A stretch of DNA of 64,000 nucleotides, taken from the sequence record PZ386966.1. One strand, 5' to 3'. The stretch is from a phage. Numbering within the stretch: the stretch's first letter is position 1; each line of letters begins with the position of its first letter. The notes under the pieces were generated by a model, which was not told the DNA's origin, ran no database searches, and saw only the letters and a program-made list of their open reading frames with translations. The position numbers and the translations under genes are program-made. Positions 1,610-33,462 of this stretch are shown here, piece after piece.

Positions 1610-3085
1610 GTGAGAAGAATGGCAGATATTACAGAAACACAAGAAAGCTTACCACCATTTAGAATGGGTGAAGTAGGTTCTTTGGGTCTGAAGGTTAAGA
1701 ATGGAAGAATCTATGAAGAACCTCGTCAGGCACTAAGGTTCCCTGAAAGTATTAAAACTTTCCAATTAATGATGCGTGACCCTGCTGTAGCAGCATCTGT
1801 AAATATTATTAAGATGTTTGTCAGAAAAGTCAACTGGAGATTCGTACCTCCAAAGGGAAAAGAGCAAGACCCTAAAATGCTTGAAAGAGCAGACTTCTTT
1901 AATTCTTTAATGGATGACATGGAGCATGATTGGGCAGATTTTATTAACTCTGTAATGTCATTCTGCACTTATGGGTTCTGTGTTAACGAAAAAGTTTATA
2001 AGAAACGTCAGGGTAAAAAAGGAAAGTACCAGTCAAAATTTGATGATGGTTTAATCGGGTGGGCTAAATTACCAATCAGAAACCAGTCAACACTTGATAA
2101 GTGGTATTTTGACGAAGACTTTAGAAAAGTTACTGGTGTTAGACAGAATCTGAGAAATGTTTCACATATTGCTGGAGCAATTAATCTTGGAGAAAGACCT
2201 CTAACAAGAAAGCTTCCACGAGCTAAATTTATGCTGTTTAAGTATGACGATGAATATGGAAATCCAGAAGGGCGTTCACCATTACTTAATGCTTATGTAC
2301 CGTGGAAATATAAAGTACAGATTGAAGAGTATGAAGCTGTTGGTGTTTCAAGAGACTTAGTAGGTATGCCAAAGATTGGTTTACCACCAGACTATCTGGA
2401 TGAAAATGCAGAGCCTGAAAAGAAAGCCTTCGTACAATACTGCAAAACTGTTGTTAATGATATGATTGCTAATGACAGAGCGGGTTTAATCTGGCCTAGA
2501 TATATCGACCCAGATACTAAAGAGGATATCTTTGAGTTCTCATTAGTTTCTAGACAGGGTGCTAAAGCATACGATACAGGTTCTATTATTGATAGATATT
2601 CCAAGCAGATTATGATGGCATTCATGTCAGATGTTCTTGCTATGGGTCAGTCAAAATATGGTTCATTCTCTCTTGCAGATTCTAAGACAAGCCTATTAGC
2701 AATGTCTGTAGATATTCTGCTGAAGCAAATTAAGAACGTAATTAACCGTGATTTAGTTGCACAGACTTACGCTCTTAATATGTGGGATGATGAAGAACAT
2801 GTACAAATCACATATGATGATATCGAAACTCCAGACCTTGAAGCAATTGGTTCTTATATTCAGAAGACTGTTGCAGTAGGTGCTTTGGAAGTTGACAAAG
2901 AGCTATCTAACAAACTTAGAGAGCATATTGGTCTTCCTCCTGCTGATGAGTCTCAGCCAGTATCTGAAAAGCTTTCTCCAAATAGCCAAAGCCGTTCAGG
3001 AGATGGTTATAAGACCGCTGGAGAAGGTACTGCAAAGACACCTTCAGCGAAAGACCCAAGCACAGCAAATAAGGCAAATAAATAA
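1610..3085 (+). CDS. portal protein
   Basis: 491 aa ORF immediately after terminase; position and size typical of portal; acidic/basic C-terminal tail. Confidence 0.5.
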   Translation: MRRMADITETQESLPPFRMGEVGSLGLKVKNGRIYEEPRQALRFPESIKTFQLMMRDPAVAASVNIIKMFVRKVNWRFVPPKGKEQDPKMLERADFFNSLMDDMEHDWADFINSVMSFCTYGFCVNEKVYKKRQGKKGKYQSKFDDGLIGWAKLPIRNQSTLDKWYFDEDFRKVTGVRQNLRNVSHIAGAINLGERPLTRKLPRAKFMLFKYDDEYGNPEGRSPLLNAYVPWKYKVQIEEYEAVGVSRDLVGMPKIGLPPDYLDENAEPEKKAFVQYCKTVVNDMIANDRAGLIWPRYIDPDTKEDIFEFSLVSRQGAKAYDTGSIIDRYSKQIMMAFMSDVLAMGQSKYGSFSLADSKTSLLAMSVDILLKQIKNVINRDLVAQTYALNMWDDEEHVQITYDDIETPDLEAIGSYIQKTVAVGALEVDKELSNKLREHIGLPPADESQPVSEKLSPNSQSRSGDGYKTAGEGTAKTPSAKDPSTANKANK

Positions 3086-3585
3086 TGGCTGAAGTTATCT
3101 CTATTTCAAATGCTACACGAGTGCATTCGTATAGGGGTGTTCTTATCATTACTGATAAGTTATCTGTAGAGGCTGGCTCAAGGGTCAGCCTTTCAGGTTA
3201 TGTTAGTGATGGTGGAACCTCTGACGTTTTCACTATTTGCAGGTTACTTGATGCACCAATGAGTGGAAAACCGTTTATTTCAGGAAATTGTAGTGAAATT
3301 GTTAAAATTCCATTTGACAGTTCATGCCTTTTGGGTGTAAAGTTATATAACTGCGAGAATAAACGTATCAATGTTAATAGCATTGAAGCCGCTTTCATTA
3401 CCCTCGATACTGCATTTCAATCTCCAATGACAGTTAATAAAGAAACAAACAGACTTGAATACATTTTTTCACAAAATGATTACAAAGTACTTGTCAAAGG
3501 CAAAGTATATGATATGATTGTAAATGTGGTAGATGAATCTGGTAACCATTCAACAGTCCTTAAACAAAAAGTAAGGTTTAATTAA
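3085..3585 (+). CDS. hypothetical protein (beta-rich, possible accessory capsid/Ig-like protein)
   Basis: Start overlaps portal stop (ATGA-type coupling); no catalytic motif recognised. Confidence 0.4.
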   Translation: MAEVISISNATRVHSYRGVLIITDKLSVEAGSRVSLSGYVSDGGTSDVFTICRLLDAPMSGKPFISGNCSEIVKIPFDSSCLLGVKLYNCENKRINVNSIEAAFITLDTAFQSPMTVNKETNRLEYIFSQNDYKVLVKGKVYDMIVNVVDESGNHSTVLKQKVRFN

Positions 3586-27406: not shown

Positions 27407-28543
27407 TTACTCATAATCCCTAATAACTAGCCCTACAGGAAACTGTAAAGAACCTTTACGAGTCATCTTCTGGAACTGAACAGTTAAAGGTTTCCCGATA
27501 AACTCTTCAGGATGTTCAGCAAGATACTGTTTCTTCTCGTGTGTAGTTTTCCATGAAACATCTACAAAGACGTTAGGAAGAGTCTCTACAACGAACTTAC
27601 CATGACCACGCTTATCGGTCTTTACACCAGTCACTTTAAACTCTTCAGTGTGCATCTTCTTGTGCTTAATCAAGAAGTATGAACGGTGACAACACTCATA
27701 GAAGGAGTCTTCAGAGATTGAACGGTACATTGCACCTTCAAACTTAACTTCAACCCACTTATCATGAGCTTCATCAAACTCTTCCCAAGAATTTACACGA
27801 CGAGACTTAACAGGGACAACTTTACAGCCGTCTCTAAAGTCATTCAATGGTGAAGTCTCAATAATATCTCTACGCTCAGGCCACGGCTTAGTGCTGTCAC
27901 AGATATCGTACCAGTAGAACTGGAGTAGATGTCGGTCTGGATTGTCTTCATTTTTAATCATGGAGACAATATCTTCTAAGTCCCACCCATGAGCATAAAT
28001 CTCTCCATCAAATTCATCAACGTCTTTATGGAGCCTCAACATAGTCATAATGTCAGGTGTTAGCTCAGTAGGTATTTTATAAACAGTATTCTCACGAGAA
28101 TAAGCCGTGAAACTAACTGAATCATCACCTCTTGAAATTCTACAACGTACACCATCAAGTTTTGGTTGAGCATCAGCAGGGAACTTCAGATACTTTGCAT
28201 GACTAACCTTTGCAGCATCATGAGCAAGCTGTACACCTACCTTCTCAGTACTCTGTGCAGACTCTTTTGTGTAAGCATAACCTTTACGGTCAACTTGCTT
28301 TTTATACTTAGCAGCAACTTCAAAGAGAGCTTGCTGTTCAGCGTTACGCTCATTCTTTTTACCGATGTTTTTAGGTTCTGCTGTGTACTCTTCAAACATC
28401 ATCTTGCCATTTTCTTTACCGTAGGTTGTAATAACTTTGTCACCTACAGCCACACATGACCAGACATTGAAAGAGCCATCTTTATTTTGTTTGTATAGAA
28501 TTGTCATTTTATTCCTCTGAGTGATACCAAGTATTGCAAGCAT
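27407..28543 (-). CDS. ATP-dependent DNA ligase
   Basis: Adenylation motif I 'KLDGVRC' (KxDGxR); size 378 aa typical of T7/T4-type ligases. Confidence 0.6.
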   Translation of the reverse strand: MLAILGITQRNKMTILYKQNKDGSFNVWSCVAVGDKVITTYGKENGKMMFEEYTAEPKNIGKKNERNAEQQALFEVAAKYKKQVDRKGYAYTKESAQSTEKVGVQLAHDAAKVSHAKYLKFPADAQPKLDGVRCRISRGDDSVSFTAYSRENTVYKIPTELTPDIMTMLRLHKDVDEFDGEIYAHGWDLEDIVSMIKNEDNPDRHLLQFYWYDICDSTKPWPERRDIIETSPLNDFRDGCKVVPVKSRRVNSWEEFDEAHDKWVEVKFEGAMYRSISEDSFYECCHRSYFLIKHKKMHTEEFKVTGVKTDKRGHGKFVVETLPNVFVDVSWKTTHEKKQYLAEHPEEFIGKPLTVQFQKMTRKGSLQFPVGLVIRDYE

Positions 28544-29303: not shown

Positions 29304-29537
29304 TCATATCAACTCCAGAATATTAATACGTTCGCCCTTAAGAACTCCAGTACGGTCTCTTGCAATCTTGCCGTCAACAATAAGGATATGTGCAGCCCTT
29401 AAAGAGTCACCATTAAAACCTTTTACGAACTTGCTAGGCATCACTACAATGGACATCTCCTGAATCAACTCTGGAGTATAGCAATTATCGTGAAGTTGCT
29501 GAATAACGTCTGCAAGTGTCATTTTTGATGTCTCCAA
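29304..29537 (-). CDS. hypothetical protein
   Basis: 77 aa ORF in leftward operon. Confidence 0.3.
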   Translation of the reverse strand: METSKMTLADVIQQLHDNCYTPELIQEMSIVVMPSKFVKGFNGDSLRAAHILIVDGKIARDRTGVLKGERINILELI

Positions 29538-29728
29538 TACTCAATGTCAATAAGTTCTTGTGCAATGCTTTTCAGATTACCTTTCAAGAAAACCTTCTCA
29601 GAACCTGAAAGAGATGAATTGTCAATTAACCTGTTCATTCTCTCAAACAACTTCTGCTTACGGTTCTTAATAGTTTCCTTTGAAGCACCTTTCATCATCG
29701 CTGCATGGGTTCTTCCACGGTGGCTCAT
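29519..29728 (-). CDS. hypothetical basic protein
   Basis: 69 aa ORF. Confidence 0.3.
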   Translation of the reverse strand: MSHRGRTHAAMMKGASKETIKNRKQKLFERMNRLIDNSSLSGSEKVFLKGNLKSIAQELIDIEYWRHQK

Positions 29729-29789
29729 AAGTCCTCCTATATAAGATATAGTATAAGGTACTCTTCCATGAGCACCTTGTCAATACTAA

Positions 29790-30349
29790 TCAGTGTACCT
29801 CAAGCCAATTCTTACCAACTTTACCAGTACCAGTTACAAGCGTTTCCTCCTTAAGTCCTAAGTTTCTTGATGCCTGACCATACATCCAGTCAATCACTGC
29901 TTTAACATCTTGTGTCATCTCTTCTGGGCACTCCCAACTATTCTCATCGTGGTATGCTAGAAGCAATCTAGCACCAATGGCTGGTTTTCGACCATTCAGC
30001 TTTGTAAGACCCTCTTCACAAGTTCTTCTACAAGCGAGGTTGATAGCTTCATTCTGAACCTGACTTTCCGAACCCATGAGCAAGTAATTTAAAAGTTTGT
30101 GCGGAGATTTACACCACAACCATGCACCTGCTACCTTTACAAAACCACCCTTAGATATTGCAGCAGTCTTACCAAACACCTCTTCAAGAGCCTTCTTAGT
30201 GGCTTTGAAGTCTGCTTCCAAATTATCTATCAACTTTTTAATCTTAGGAAGGCGTACAAAGTAAGTTTGCTTAGTTAAAGCACCTTCTTCGGTTGTTGAT
30301 GCTTTAATCGTCTTGGCAAACTTCTCATCACCTGCCCCAAACAATACAT
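29790..30349 (-). CDS. DNA polymerase family A, C-terminal exon (exon 2)
   Basis: Track ORF begins at a TTG, not ATG; frame opens right after an in-frame TGA; N-terminus 'LFGAGDEKFAKT' completes Pol A motif B (T7 'YGAGDEK'); 'LLLAYHDENSWECPEE' is motif C (HDE). Confidence 0.6.
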
Positions 30350-31154
30350 CTGGTCAATACACTCGCAAGGTGTACCAGTTCTCTTATGAACTTCTCCGCA
30401 TTTCTACGGAGTGTCGGACTATATCACGTAGTAGTAATACTACCGTTGCACTTGGGAATGGTCATTAGCTTACCAACCTACTCTACTCAGTTCATACATT
30501 AAGTATGCTTTTCGATAGTCTCTGAACGTTTCTCTGTTAGGAATCTCTATAATCATGTTATTTACTCAGGTAGTCAATTGCCCTTTGCATATTATCAACG
30601 CTATCTGCAAGTAACCCTAAAGCCCTATTGCAATTGTGGCACAACATACCTCTTACTTTTCCGGTTTTGTGGTCATGGTCAACGACAAGTTTAGCTTTAT
30701 GCCGTGAACTATTCATGATAAAACCTTCACCGCCACAAATTTGACATTTGTAATCACAGTTGCGAAGTAGGTTTTCAACCTCTTCTCTTTCTAAACCATA
30801 TGTTCTCAGGTAGTAATTCTTAACTCTACCTTTCTCTCCGCAATGTGAAGAACAATAAACTTGCCTTGCTGTTCTAGGCATGAACACCTTCTCACAGCTA
30901 GGACATTTCTTAGTAAGAACCCTATGTTCTGCTCTTCTGTCAAATTTTAATACGCAACTTCTGCACCGTTTTTGATTGTATTGGTATGGTTTAAACTCTG
31001 CACCACACTCAGTACACAATCTTTCTTTGTAACCTGCCATTGTCTCTCTCCTTTGCTTTAGGAGTCCTAACAGAGACTTCGCTGCTGATTACCATATCTT
31101 TACAGACTTAGGCTTCCAGCAATTCACAACGTTTTACATGCGCCACTGACGCAT
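30350..31154 (-). mobile_element. group I intron (IA-like) interrupting the DNA polymerase gene, with HEG in P6 region
   Basis: Minus-strand conserved elements in canonical order: P-like 'aattgctggaagcc' (31111-31124), Q-like 'aatcagcagc' (31081-31090), R 'gttcagagacta' (30516-30527), S 'gatatagtcc' (30416-30425). Proposed 5' splice after a U and 3' splice after a G restore an in-frame motif B. Exact boundaries inferred. Confidence 0.6.
30558..31040 (-). CDS. intron-encoded endonuclease VII-like (HNH-type) homing endonuclease
   Basis: 'VVDHDHKTGKVRGMLCHNCNRALG' matches the T4 endo VII catalytic motif; N-terminal CxxC zinc ribbons; lies between the two polymerase exons. Confidence 0.6.
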   Translation of the reverse strand: MAGYKERLCTECGAEFKPYQYNQKRCRSCVLKFDRRAEHRVLTKKCPSCEKVFMPRTARQVYCSSHCGEKGRVKNYYLRTYGLEREEVENLLRNCDYKCQICGGEGFIMNSSRHKAKLVVDHDHKTGKVRGMLCHNCNRALGLLADSVDNMQRAIDYLSK

Positions 31155-33324
31155 AAATGCCATTTTTGGCTTTCTTACGACCTTTGCTAATTTCTTGAAG
31201 AAGATTTGTATCCTGAGTGGCTCGACAGGTCAAGATGTCTTCCTCTTTATTAAGGCTGAAGTAAATACTATTTAAAGTATGCGCATCAGTTCCTGAGTAC
31301 ACCACGTACAAGTCATTTTCCGAATCATAATGCAAATACTTGTCAATCTCTGGGTTTAGATACTGGTCAAAATGTTTGCAATAGTATCTGCCATCATCTT
31401 GTTTGACAAACTCAACCTCTTCTTTACCCTCTGTTACTGCTTTAGTGAACTCTTTATCACCCATAAAGTTACACAGCAGTACAAGTTGCGCGCTATTCAT
31501 ATCTGCTGAAACAATATTAGTTCCCTCTTCACAAGTCCACACCTCCCTCATAGGTGCTCCATAGACAGCAGCACCAGACGGTACGTTTACAATACCATAT
31601 TGTGTCATACGTCCAGTTGAAGTACCAAACACCATTGCACCAGCACTAAGGCGACCATCAGGACGAATCTGGTTCAACCATCCTTTTTCATCATCCTTTG
31701 AGTTCTCAATAGTTCTGCGTCGGTGCATCAAAGTGTAGTACTTAGCAATCTTCTGTCCAAGCTCACCTTCAATCGTATCATAAGATGATTCAGTAAGTTT
31801 TGGTGAAGTACGAATTAAGCAAGGTTCAAGTAAGTCTGTGTACTTCTTAACAGACCAGTTATGCTCAATGTACTGGACACCTTCATGTTCAACATAGCTC
31901 AAGCCACAACGCTCAACCATCTCATCCCATTTAGGATGCTTGGTAATCATCTTTTTGTTGTCTTTGAAACGACAAACCTTAACAGGACGACCATCAGAGT
32001 CTTTCTTATAGTTCCAGTCATCAGGAATCCAACCAACTGATTTCAAGTAGTCCTTCACAACAGCCACCTGAGTCATTCGAGAAACTTCAAACTCAATTGG
32101 TGTATATGGTGCATCAATCAAACCTGTGTAGCGACTTGACTCAAGTCCAAAGTGGTTAACAACATGACTGTTATAGTACTTCACAGTTTTAACTGTTTTT
32201 ACTGGCTTCCAGTCTTTGCATTTCTTACCAATCTTTGCATTCAACTCGTTGCAAATTGCACGAGCATCCTTCATTGCTACAAAACCTTCCTTGTACTCTT
32301 CGCCAGTTACAGTGTTGGTTGGTGTATAGCAATTCCGCTTTTCAATGTTAAAAATCTTTGTAGTTGGCTTACCAAATGGCTTGATTTCATATGTCTGCAT
32401 CTCACCGTTACGTACCTGCTGACGATACTTTGTCTTAGGGTACTTGGTAATTCTTTTCAGTCCATCTGCATGACCAAACGCTTCAACATACTCATTCCAA
32501 GCTTTTGCAAACTCTTCTCCAGTGACTTTACCTTTGGTCTTAATAGTTGGTGGAAGGTGTGGTTCAACTTCTGAAGCAAGCTCATTAGTCAACTTGTCAA
32601 GTTCCTTTACATGGAACTCCATAAGCTCTTTATCAGCTTTCCAACCATTGATAGCCTGTTGACTCATCCAGAAAGATGTCTCTTTAGCTCGCATATAGGT
32701 TTCATAAGTGTCTATGCCACACTTCTTTAACTTGAGATATTCATTATCCAGTGCGCGTTTAGTTTTGGCGTTAATACGGATATCTTCTACAACACGAGTG
32801 AAGATTTCTGCATTCCACACACCCCAATGTTCAATCTCTGGTTTACGGACACCAACACGAGCACCCCATGCTGCCAAGCCATGAGCACCTTTATAGCCTT
32901 TTGGAGTTGGTCTATCCATCCACTGAACACGAGACTGGATAAGAGAGTCCTGAAAGAAATTACTCCACGGCTTACATTTTGGATTATCGAAGTTCCACAA
33001 ATCAGGTGCAATATGATTGAAAACCCACCAGTCATACCCCAGACCATTATGGATACAAAGCCGTTTTGCCTTTAACGCAAACTCAATACCTTCACGTAAA
33101 CCACCCTTAATGTACTTGGTATACTTGTGACCGAGGATAGGCTCATCTGTAAAGACCCATACAGGTGGCTCCTCATCGTCAGATTTATAGTCTGCGAAAG
33201 CCATGACGTGGACTTTAGTGAACTCAAGGAGTAAACCATCAGTTTCTGTATCACCAACTAAGTGTAAGTTTTTAAAATCTACGTTTTCCATTTGTACTCC
33301 CTCTAATTCGTTAACCCCATACAT
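31155..33324 (-). CDS. DNA polymerase family A, N-terminal exon (exon 1; uninterrupted ORF runs to 31108)
   Basis: Exo I-like 'DTETDGL', motif A-like 'VSADMNSAQLVLL', start of motif B 'RKKAKNGIY'; ORF then continues into intron sequence and stops. Confidence 0.65.
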
Positions 33325-33350
33325 TACTGCAAAAAATTATAAAAAGCAAG

Positions 33351-33380
33351 TTGACAATGTACTTGACAAGGTGTTAATCT
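33351..33380 (+). promoter_or_regulatory. promoter candidate in divergent control region
   Basis: Two 'ttgaca' copies (33351, 33363) with a weak -10 'ttaatc' 17 bp downstream of the first. Confidence 0.3.
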
Positions 33381-33462
33381 TTGCGAAGTGGGTTTTTACT
33401 TAAAAGGTTACTTAACAGTTTAACTATACAGACACTTTAAAACTCTTAAAAGATTATTTAAT

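Follow-up and report, generated by a model that had tools for sequence, protein, structure and literature searches.

Is the DNA polymerase of this phage encoded by two genes or by one? The question is raised by a locus in a 64,000-nucleotide (nt) stretch of phage DNA (PZ386966.1; the whole stretch is referred to below as the window), where a family-A DNA polymerase is spread over two minus-strand open reading frames (ORFs) with a third ORF of 160 amino acids (aa) between them. The upstream ORF (31108-33324) encodes the N-terminal part of the polymerase as far as ...GRKKAKNGIY, continues for 15 codons that, as argued below, belong to an intron, and ends in a TAA. The downstream ORF (29790-30344) starts at a TTG and encodes the C-terminal part, FGAGDEK...YHDE. 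The first-pass annotation of the window, which was made from the letters alone, located all three ORFs at coordinates that agree with the ORF list, and proposed that the polymerase is divided inside its motif B by a group I intron. It also described the TTG as lying just after an in-frame TGA; both codons are present, and the TGA stands three codons upstream rather than adjacent to the TTG. The proposal itself is borne out by alleles that lack the intron or its ORF, by the scores of covariance models, by covariation in the helices and by a gap-free product of 910 aa. The element is very probably a mobile group I intron of subgroup IA2, inserted into the family-A polymerase gene of a Felix O1-like phage and carrying a homing endonuclease ORF. 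Comparison of sequences demonstrates its boundaries, its fold, the restored reading frame and its presence/absence polymorphism.

The origin of the window can be read from its similarity to known genomes. Positions 29700-33400 are 95-96% identical to the genomes of Felixounavirus members (Escherichia phages LNA6 and LinBro, Salmonella phage BPS15Q2), and Escherichia phage JH2 is 94.5% identical over the polymerase region. In all, this region matches 261 phage records, nearly all of them from Felix O1-like myoviruses. By these matches the window comes from a Felixounavirus, a Felix O1-like myovirus.

One Polymerase Gene, Interrupted inside Motif B

In a multiple alignment, the window differs from the intronless polymerase gene of phage KhF3 by a single clean insertion of 802 nt. 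KhF3 reads AAT GGT ATC TAT GCA CTG CTG TTT GGT at the site, encoding N G I Y A L L F G, and the window reads ...AAT GGC ATT TAT GCG T / CAGTGGCGCATG ... CCAGATG / TA TTG TTT GGG (slashes mark the junctions here and below). The splice points are placed after U31149 and after G30347, as the alignment with the intronless allele and the P1 and P10 pairings agree, so that the intron spans 30347-31148 on the minus strand, with C31148 as its first base and G30347 as its terminal guanosine. In P1, the exon strand UAUGCGU (31149-31155) pairs with the guide strand GCGCAUG (31137-31143) in seven of seven positions, unchanged in all alleles, and U31149, the last exon base, forms the closing U.G wobble with G31143. 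In P10, the adjoining guide strand CAGUG (31144-31148) pairs in five of five positions with UAUUG (30342-30346), the first five nucleotides of exon 2. The site thus shows what is expected of group I splice sites: a U in the U.G pair of P1, a terminal G, and a P10 that engages exon 2. Joining at these points yields TAT GCG T/TA TTG TTT, or Y A L L F, in which both length and residues are as in the intronless alleles. The ligated junction would accordingly read ...UAUGCGU/UAUUGUU..., that is ...AUUUAUGCGU/UAUUGUUUGGGG..., and the protein ...KNGIYA/LLFGAGDEK.

The boundaries given earlier, after U31155 and after G30350, lie 6 nt away at the 5′ end and 3 nt away at the 3′ end, and are rejected in the light of the intronless alignment and of P1 and P10. 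They would give NGIY-VLFGAGDEK, leaving motif B short by one residue compared with every intronless allele (IYALLFGAGDEK), and U31155 lacks a pairing in P1 that would define it as a splice site. The intron of about 805 nt that had been predicted therefore stands as an intron, with its length corrected to 802 nt.

The joined gene has the properties of an intact polymerase gene. Exon 1 (31149-33324, minus strand) ends in ...AAA AAT GGC ATT TAT GCG T and comprises the 3′-5′ exonuclease domain, motif A and the first half of motif B, as judged from the ORF, the KhF3 alignment and Pfam. Exon 2 (29790-30346, minus strand, stop codon included) begins with UA UUG UUU GGG... (L-L-F-G-A-G-D-E-K) and comprises the second half of motif B and motif C (YHDE). 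Together they form a coding sequence (CDS) of 2733 nt with only one stop codon, at its end. The product, of 910 aa, aligns without a gap over 904 residues with the intronless polymerase of KhF3 (95.1% identity), indicating that removal of the intron gives back an intact host gene. The two outer ORFs each score weakly against the Pfam DNA_pol_A model (18.7 and 27.3 bits, both below the cut-off of 34.3), and the spliced protein scores 59.1 bits. It contains a contiguous motif B (RxxAKxxxYxxxFG) and motif C (HDE), as is characteristic of family-A polymerases, and its alignment with T7 gp5 runs unbroken across the junction, GRKKAKNGIYALLFGAGDEKFAKTI against TRDNAKTFIYGFLYGAGDEKIGQIV, and is continuous over RKKAKNGIYALLFGAGDEK. 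By our own mapping, which uses the T7 gp5 alignment and the standard numbering of motif B, the first base of codon 764 (E. coli Pol I numbering), inside motif B, is the last one before the insertion. On this evidence the gene should be annotated as a single spliced CDS, which in window coordinates is join(complement 31149..33324, 29790..30346). Translation is assumed to begin at the first ATG of the ORF; annotated starts in relatives differ slightly.

Fold and Subgroup of the Intron

All of the helices expected of such an intron can form in the window: P1, P3, P4, P5/P5a, P6, P6a, P7, P7.1, P7.2, P8, P9, P9.1, P9.2 and P10. The P3-P8 helices are present, the P, Q, R and S elements follow one another in order, and P3 and P7 form the pseudoknot of the group I core. 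As had been noted from the letters, the four core elements are found in canonical order on the minus strand, and the endonuclease ORF lies between Q and R, in the loop of P6a. The 5′ strand of P3 (CGUUG, 31127-31131) is followed by the P element (AAUUGCUGGAAGCC, 31111-31124), which holds the 5′ strands of P4 (31116-31121) and P5. The P5a stem (31096-31107) is capped by a GUAA tetraloop of the GNRA type, which in phage BPS17W1 is GGAA, also GNRA. The Q element (AAUCAGCAGC, 31081-31090) supplies the 3′ strand of P4. P6a is a 12-bp stem with its 5′ strand (UCUCUGUUAGGA) at 31065-31076 and its 3′ strand (UCCUAACAGAGA) at 30531-30542; one of its pairs has undergone a compensatory change from U-A to C-G in BPS17W1. 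Next comes the R element (GUUCAGAGACUA, 30516-30527), which holds the 5′ strand of P7 with a bulged A and is invariant in all related introns. P7.1 (30493-30507) and P7.2 (30456-30478, with one U x U mismatch) are joined by the GUA-containing linker GAGUAGAGUAGG (30477-30488). The 3′ strand of P3 (CAACG) lies at 30444-30448 and the P8 hairpin, which also shows a compensatory U-A to C-G change, at 30428-30443. The S element (GAUAUAGUCC, 30416-30425) holds the 3′ strand of P7, and P9 (30394-30411, with a GAAA tetraloop), P9.1 (30378-30391) and P9.2 (30351-30377) complete the fold, followed by GAU and the terminal G30347.

Introns of subgroup IA2 are defined by extra helices, P7.1 and P7.2, between P7 and the 3′ strand of P3, with a GUA-containing linker (PMC3428280). 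Because P2 is missing from the window intron and its P7.1 and P7.2 helices are joined by such a linker, its sequence assigns it to IA2.

A comparison with the covariance model Rfam RF00028 (Intron_gpI), which the first-pass annotation had put forward as a check, gives a full-length match only where the ORF is absent. The gathering score of this model is 50 bits; the ORF-less introns of phages BPS17W1, Tf and Mushroom exceed it at 62.1, 62.9 and 62.3 bits, and the ribozyme segments of the window are 93-100% identical to these copies. In E-value mode, the window itself, which falls below the gathering score, gives two partial matches that flank the ORF, one of 28.1 bits (E = 5.9e-5) over P3-P6 and one of 15.9 bits over P7-P9. 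Since the 5′ half reaches this E-value with the ORF in place and the ORF-less alleles score 62-63 bits, the matches to the core elements are far more than chance.

Standard pairs fill 99.8% of the pair cells in six Felixounavirus alleles, and substitutions in helices are either compensatory (the U-A to C-G changes in P6a and P8) or compatible (U-A to U.G, G.U to G-C). The only unpaired cell is the U x U in P7.2 of the window copy. As variation inside the genus is too low for strong statistics, a covariance model was built from the Felixounavirus alleles and used to align related ORF-less phage introns, each of which is detected by both this model and Rfam. These lie in the RNA polymerase genes of the N4-like phages ZQ2 and MIF8, the terminase gene of Vibrio phage 11895-B1 and the primase-helicase gene of Pseudoalteromonas phage RIO-1. 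A plain MAFFT alignment with such distant introns misaligned P7.2-P8 and was replaced by the covariance-model alignment, which leans towards the model. In the wider set, 95.7% of cells pair and 50 of the 77 pairs have changed on both sides, including pairs in P7.1 and P7.2; no shuffle reaches the observed values, and partners slid out of register pair in 34-42% of cells.

The Intron-Encoded Endonuclease

The 160-aa ORF in the loop of P6a (30558-31040, minus strand) encodes a putative homing endonuclease, as indicated by Pfam, PHROG and an alignment of the catalytic core. Its likeness to endonuclease VII, claimed at first sight, is confirmed by the Pfam domain Endonuclease_7 (PF02945, E = 8.6e-20), and PHROG endonuclease VII families match it at 3e-42. 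The N-terminal half contains three CxxC motifs (residues 9, 26 and 46). The C-terminal half is an endonuclease VII/DHHRN beta-beta-alpha-metal core, CQIC...VDHDHKTGKVRGMLCHNCN, which lines up with the core that serves catalysis and zinc binding in T4 endonuclease VII and in Hpy99I, a beta-beta-alpha-metal restriction enzyme; the identity of the catalytic residues in the DHHRN family is taken from Fang et al. 2018 (PMC6083498). These features place the predicted protein among the endonuclease VII-motif (DHHRN, HNH superfamily) homing endonucleases, in the F-CphI family.

The ORF has a Shine-Dalgarno sequence of its own, AGGAG (31048-31052), 7 nt before its ATG. A scan for sigma-70 promoters and terminators around the intron found nothing above chance, and thus no sign of a separate endonuclease promoter. 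At the tip of P6a, a small hairpin (CUCCU-AAAGCAA-AGGAG, 31048-31064, minus strand) is predicted to pair the Shine-Dalgarno sequence; in the window it is no more stable than shuffled sequence (z = −0.35), and comparable hairpins are predicted in three diverged relatives, phage EC6, Klebsiella phage Kpp-61 and a Yersinia phage (z = −2.2, −0.7 and −2.1, respectively). This is at most a hint that the hairpin could damp translation of the endonuclease.

By analogy with introns of this kind, we infer that the element is spliced, that its endonuclease is active and that it homes. The polymerase gene would be transcribed as a single pre-mRNA, in which the intron RNA folds into a P1-P10 ribozyme. An external guanosine would attack after U31149, held in P1 by the U.G pair with the internal guide sequence, and exon 1, once freed, would in turn attack after the terminal G30347 while P10 holds exon 2 in place. 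The resulting message, ...KNGIYA-LLFGAGDEK..., would encode the complete 910-aa polymerase. In a mixed infection, the 160-aa endonuclease would cut intronless polymerase alleles near the insertion site, and repair from an intron-containing genome would copy the intron into the cut allele.

Alleles within Felixounavirus

Comparison of the matching records demonstrates that the element is polymorphic in the genus, being present in some genomes and absent from others. Phages KhF3, Felix O1 and JohannRWettstein are intronless, with the polymerase encoded as a single CDS of 906-910 aa. LinBro, Seyj1-1, VSe11, allfine and EC6 carry the intron with the endonuclease VII ORF, and BPS17W1 (268 nt, locus L002 2456-2723) as well as Tf and Mushroom (311 nt, loci L003 2455-2765 and L009 415-725; locus coordinates) carry it without the ORF. 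In total, the intron is found in 97 of the 261 matching records, 41 of which hold a full-length endonuclease ORF. This ORF occurs as two sequence types, with 90-98% and about 75% nucleotide identity to that of the window. The second type (L008, L013), about 75% identical in DNA and 79% in protein, is flanked by a ribozyme that is 97-98% identical. Within the same genome pairs, the ribozyme is 93-100% identical, exon 2 77-97% and the endonuclease ORF 75-97%. The ribozyme is thus more conserved than exon 2 or the ORF, a pattern that fits functional constraint, lateral spread, or both. Together with the presence/absence polymorphism, it lends indirect support to homing.

The two ORF-less forms appear to be independent deletions of the endonuclease gene. 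The BPS17W1 intron has a short, trimmed P6a with a compensatory change. The Tf and Mushroom introns keep ...CCTAAAGCAAATAACAT... as well as the tail of the ORF, and the 311-nt form fits a deletion between short repeats, AAGCAAA, which are found on either side of the ORF in Seyj1-1, for example. The exon junction TATGCGT/TATTGTT is common to every allele that contains the intron. Intronless alleles read TATGCACTGCTGTTT (KhF3), TATGCACTACTGTTC or TACGCCCTGTTATTT (Felix O1) at the site. The difference may stem from the requirements of P1 and P10 together with co-conversion, or may reflect target sites that resist cleavage.

The distribution raises the possibility that the Felixounavirus intron is homing actively, and that a single genus displays all stages of its homing cycle; this stronger claim is a plausible one that falls a little short of an even chance. 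The stages seen are intronless alleles, introns with an endonuclease of two diverged types, and at least two apparently independent ORF deletions. The reading also draws on the insertion site shared with a Klebsiella podovirus and on the homologous endonuclease found 11 nt upstream in Yersinia podoviruses, both described below. The Felixounavirus site (motif B, Pol I codons 763/764) is not among the three polymerase sites tabulated in a 2012 comparison (PMC3428280). If active homing were the case, the genus would offer a tractable natural setting in which to study how introns pass between phage families, how endonucleases hop between sites and how introns mediate competition among co-infecting coliphages.

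Two observations concern the neighbourhood of the polymerase gene. Many relatives, whether or not they carry the intron, have a free-standing gene for an HNH homing endonuclease directly downstream of the polymerase stop codon (in locus coordinates, L002 3282-, L003 3307-3843, L005 3021-3548, L006 2992-3495 and L007 3815-4327). The window has no HNH gene around 29728-29790, and its next ORF encodes a 69-aa protein (29519-29728). Further downstream of the polymerase, a 378-aa ORF (27407-28543, minus strand) contains ...AQPKLDGVRC..., which we take to resemble the KxDG adenylation motif of ATP-dependent DNA ligases.

Objections and Alternative Explanations

Several observations weigh against the locus being a functional mobile intron. 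The window has zero matches to Rfam RF00028 at the gathering threshold, which is attributable to the 534-nt ORF insert in P6a. The U x U in P7.2 is absent from nine other Felixounavirus alleles checked at this position, which have G.U (as in LinBro, one of the closest relatives) or A-U there. Covariation within the genus is weak, as it amounts to 2 compensatory pairs, a number that 46 of 500 shuffles also reach, and the wider covariation alignment is fitted to the model and favours the structure. The fold is nevertheless considered secure because of the size of the effect and because the wider loci score 57-94 bits with Rfam independently of that model. A search of IMG/VR for an intronless polymerase with the intron-type junction TATGCGTTATTGTTNGG found none (16 matches to this string, none of them in a polymerase, were dismissed as chance), which leaves both precise intron loss and a naive target site without evidence. 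Finally, the searchable literature contains no RNA or biochemical data for any Felixounavirus intron.

Could the polymerase instead be made in pieces, by two separate genes with a free-standing endonuclease and no RNA splicing? Most inspected GenBank records that carry the intron are annotated in this way, the announcement of the Mushroom genome speaks of two genes, and the downstream piece can be read from its TTG. Inspection of the sequence ahead of that TTG, however, reveals neither a Shine-Dalgarno sequence nor an in-frame ATG, and the break cuts through motif B, across which the alignment with T7 gp5 is continuous. The spacer does not behave as a passive one either: it is a complete group I ribozyme that scores above the Rfam threshold when the ORF is absent, its 268-311-nt form in ORF-less alleles is 93-100% identical while the exons diverge, and its P1 and P10 pair exactly with the exon ends. 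Genes in pieces are therefore very improbable. Removal at the protein level, by an intein or a similar intervening sequence, might be considered since the insertion interrupts a strongly conserved catalytic motif, a location as typical of inteins as it is of introns. It is refuted by the stop codons in the polymerase frame, as exon 1 runs into a TAA after 15 codons. In addition, the endonuclease is fused to neither exon and has its own start codon and Shine-Dalgarno sequence, Pfam finds no intein domains, and the ORF-less alleles keep only sequence that belongs to the RNA structure.

An intron that has decayed is a different matter, in which the ribozyme of the window would splice poorly, for instance as a result of the P7.2 mismatch, leaving an impaired polymerase or a defective genome. 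That the mismatch is seen in the window copy only, together with the missing gathering-level Rfam match, would be in keeping with this. Yet the mismatch affects one internal position of a 7-bp peripheral helix, and the Rfam result is accounted for by the ORF insert. The core (P3, P4, P6, P7, P8, R, S, the terminal G, P1 and P10) is identical to that of many viable, independently isolated phages, and the polymerase exons and the endonuclease ORF are intact, so that decay has very little to recommend it. A mobile group IA2 intron with its endonuclease thus remains by far the best explanation of the locus.

Annotation and Previous Descriptions

The element has already been recognised, is of a well-known kind and introduces no new principle. 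Fang et al. 2018 (Mob DNA, PMC6083498), who defined the family of homing endonucleases with the endonuclease VII motif "DHHRN", state in one sentence that the proteins of phages JH2 and EC6 (Escherichia) and FSL SP-010 (Salmonella) are intron-encoded. One Felixounavirus paper mentions "two introns" from a scan for non-coding RNAs, without further detail. The announcement of the Mushroom genome describes the "two genes" as 383 bp apart and leaves the intron unrecognised. The paper on the Felix O1 genome reports no introns, which is correct as far as this site is concerned, Felix O1 being intronless there. In the searchable literature, the splice sites, the fold, the subgroup and the distribution of alleles of the Felixounavirus intron are nowhere described.

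In the databases, most of the inspected intron-containing records show two polymerase CDSs, with exon 1 read through into the intron, and some add spurious small ORFs within the intron (e.g., LinBro 2999-3115, antisense). None of the Felixounavirus records inspected has an intron feature or a joined CDS. The main value of the present analysis is thus one of annotation: about 97 public Felixounavirus-type genomes carry the intron, and most of those inspected show two polymerases and an "endonuclease VII". Several of the carrier phages are candidates for biocontrol of Salmonella or E. coli, for which a mobile element able to move between co-infecting phages has some relevance. The analysis also adds one case to the group IA2 introns that carry a homing endonuclease and interrupt a phage polymerase at its catalytic centre, and a well-populated natural set of alleles that can be used to study intron homing in coliphages.

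Comparison with Known Introns

The nearest systems are the other Felixounavirus copies (JH2, EC6, FSL SP-010, LinBro, BPS15Q2 and others), which share the gene, the insertion site and the ribozyme (95-100% identical) with the window. Their endonucleases are 75-98% identical in DNA, and nothing substantive differs save the U x U in P7.2 of the window.

The T4 td intron with I-TevI resembles the window intron in being of subgroup IA2 and in having its ORF looped out from P6a, between Q and R, and its possible translational control through a sequestered ribosome-binding site can be likened to the hairpin described above. It differs in its host gene, which encodes thymidylate synthase, and in its endonuclease, which is of the GIY-YIG and not the endonuclease VII type.

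Introns of subgroup IA2 with an endonuclease ORF in P6a have been described in the family-A polymerase genes of phages phiI, W31 and Pf-WMP3, and related introns in SPO1, SP82 and Bastille; the splicing of these introns has been shown experimentally, both in vivo and in vitro (PMC3428280). The tabulated insertion sites are at Pol I positions 674, 676 and 881, with phiI and W31 at 881 and Pf-WMP3, SPO1, SP82 and Bastille at 674 (PMC3428280). Introns of the phiI/W31/Pf-WMP3 type share with the window intron the IA2 subgroup, the lack of P2, the GUA-linked P7.1 and P7.2, the P6a ORF with a ribosome-binding site of its own, and the host gene. They differ in lying at other sites than the codon 763/764 region of motif B, and their endonucleases (I-TslI, I-PfoP3I, I-HmuI) are classical HNH enzymes, whereas that of the window is of the endonuclease VII/DHHRN type.

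Some close IA2 introns are found in other genes. Those of ZQ2 (L010 460-703), Erwinia phage MIF8 (L015 655-902) and Vibrio phage 11895-B1 (L016 603-882) score 82-94 bits with Rfam. The records of ZQ2 and MIF8 annotate neither an intron nor a spliced gene, and that of 11895-B1 gives the terminase as a joined CDS without an intron feature. In RIO-1, the intron of the primase-helicase gene (L014) does have an annotation, and its P1 and guide sequence are nearly as in the window (AUGCGU/GCGCAU).

Two further comparisons are with polymerase introns of Autographiviridae, which are podoviruses, unlike the myovirus of the window. In Yersinia phage AKS2021HT55GU_phi (OR671234; locus L011 2817-3496), which is of the Berlin/YpP-G type, the polymerase intron is inserted upstream of the Felixounavirus site, at a distance of 11 nt, following AAGACGUU (AAGACGTT) and within the motif AKTF/IYG; its endonuclease is homologous and 51% identical to that of the window. 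Motif B therefore has two insertion sites close to each other, and the endonucleases at the two are related. Identification of this Yersinia intron with that of phiI and W31 was dropped, as the latter sit at Pol I 881 and carry an HNH endonuclease. Fang et al. 2018 (PMC6083498) describe the endonucleases of the Yersinia phages Berlin and YpP-G as intron-embedded. In Klebsiella phage Kpp-61 (PQ570679, Autographiviridae; locus L012 2822-3492), the polymerase is interrupted at the position homologous to that of the window, ...TATATGCGT/. UAUGCGU again precedes the break, the guide sequence (GCGCAUGUAAAAC, GCGCATGTAAAAC) is shared as well, and the endonuclease VII ORF is 49% identical to that of the window. 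Over about 115 residues, the endonucleases of Kpp-61 and of Yersinia pestis podoviruses show 49-51% identity to that of the window. Both podovirus introns share the S element and P9.1 sequence with the window intron, but the sequence of their 5′ core (P3-P6) is unlike it, and their matches to the covariance model are weak (22-27 bits). Because the position and guide are the same and the ORF is homologous, but the 5′ core is different, the Kpp-61 intron suggests that parts of introns have been transferred or reassorted between phage families.

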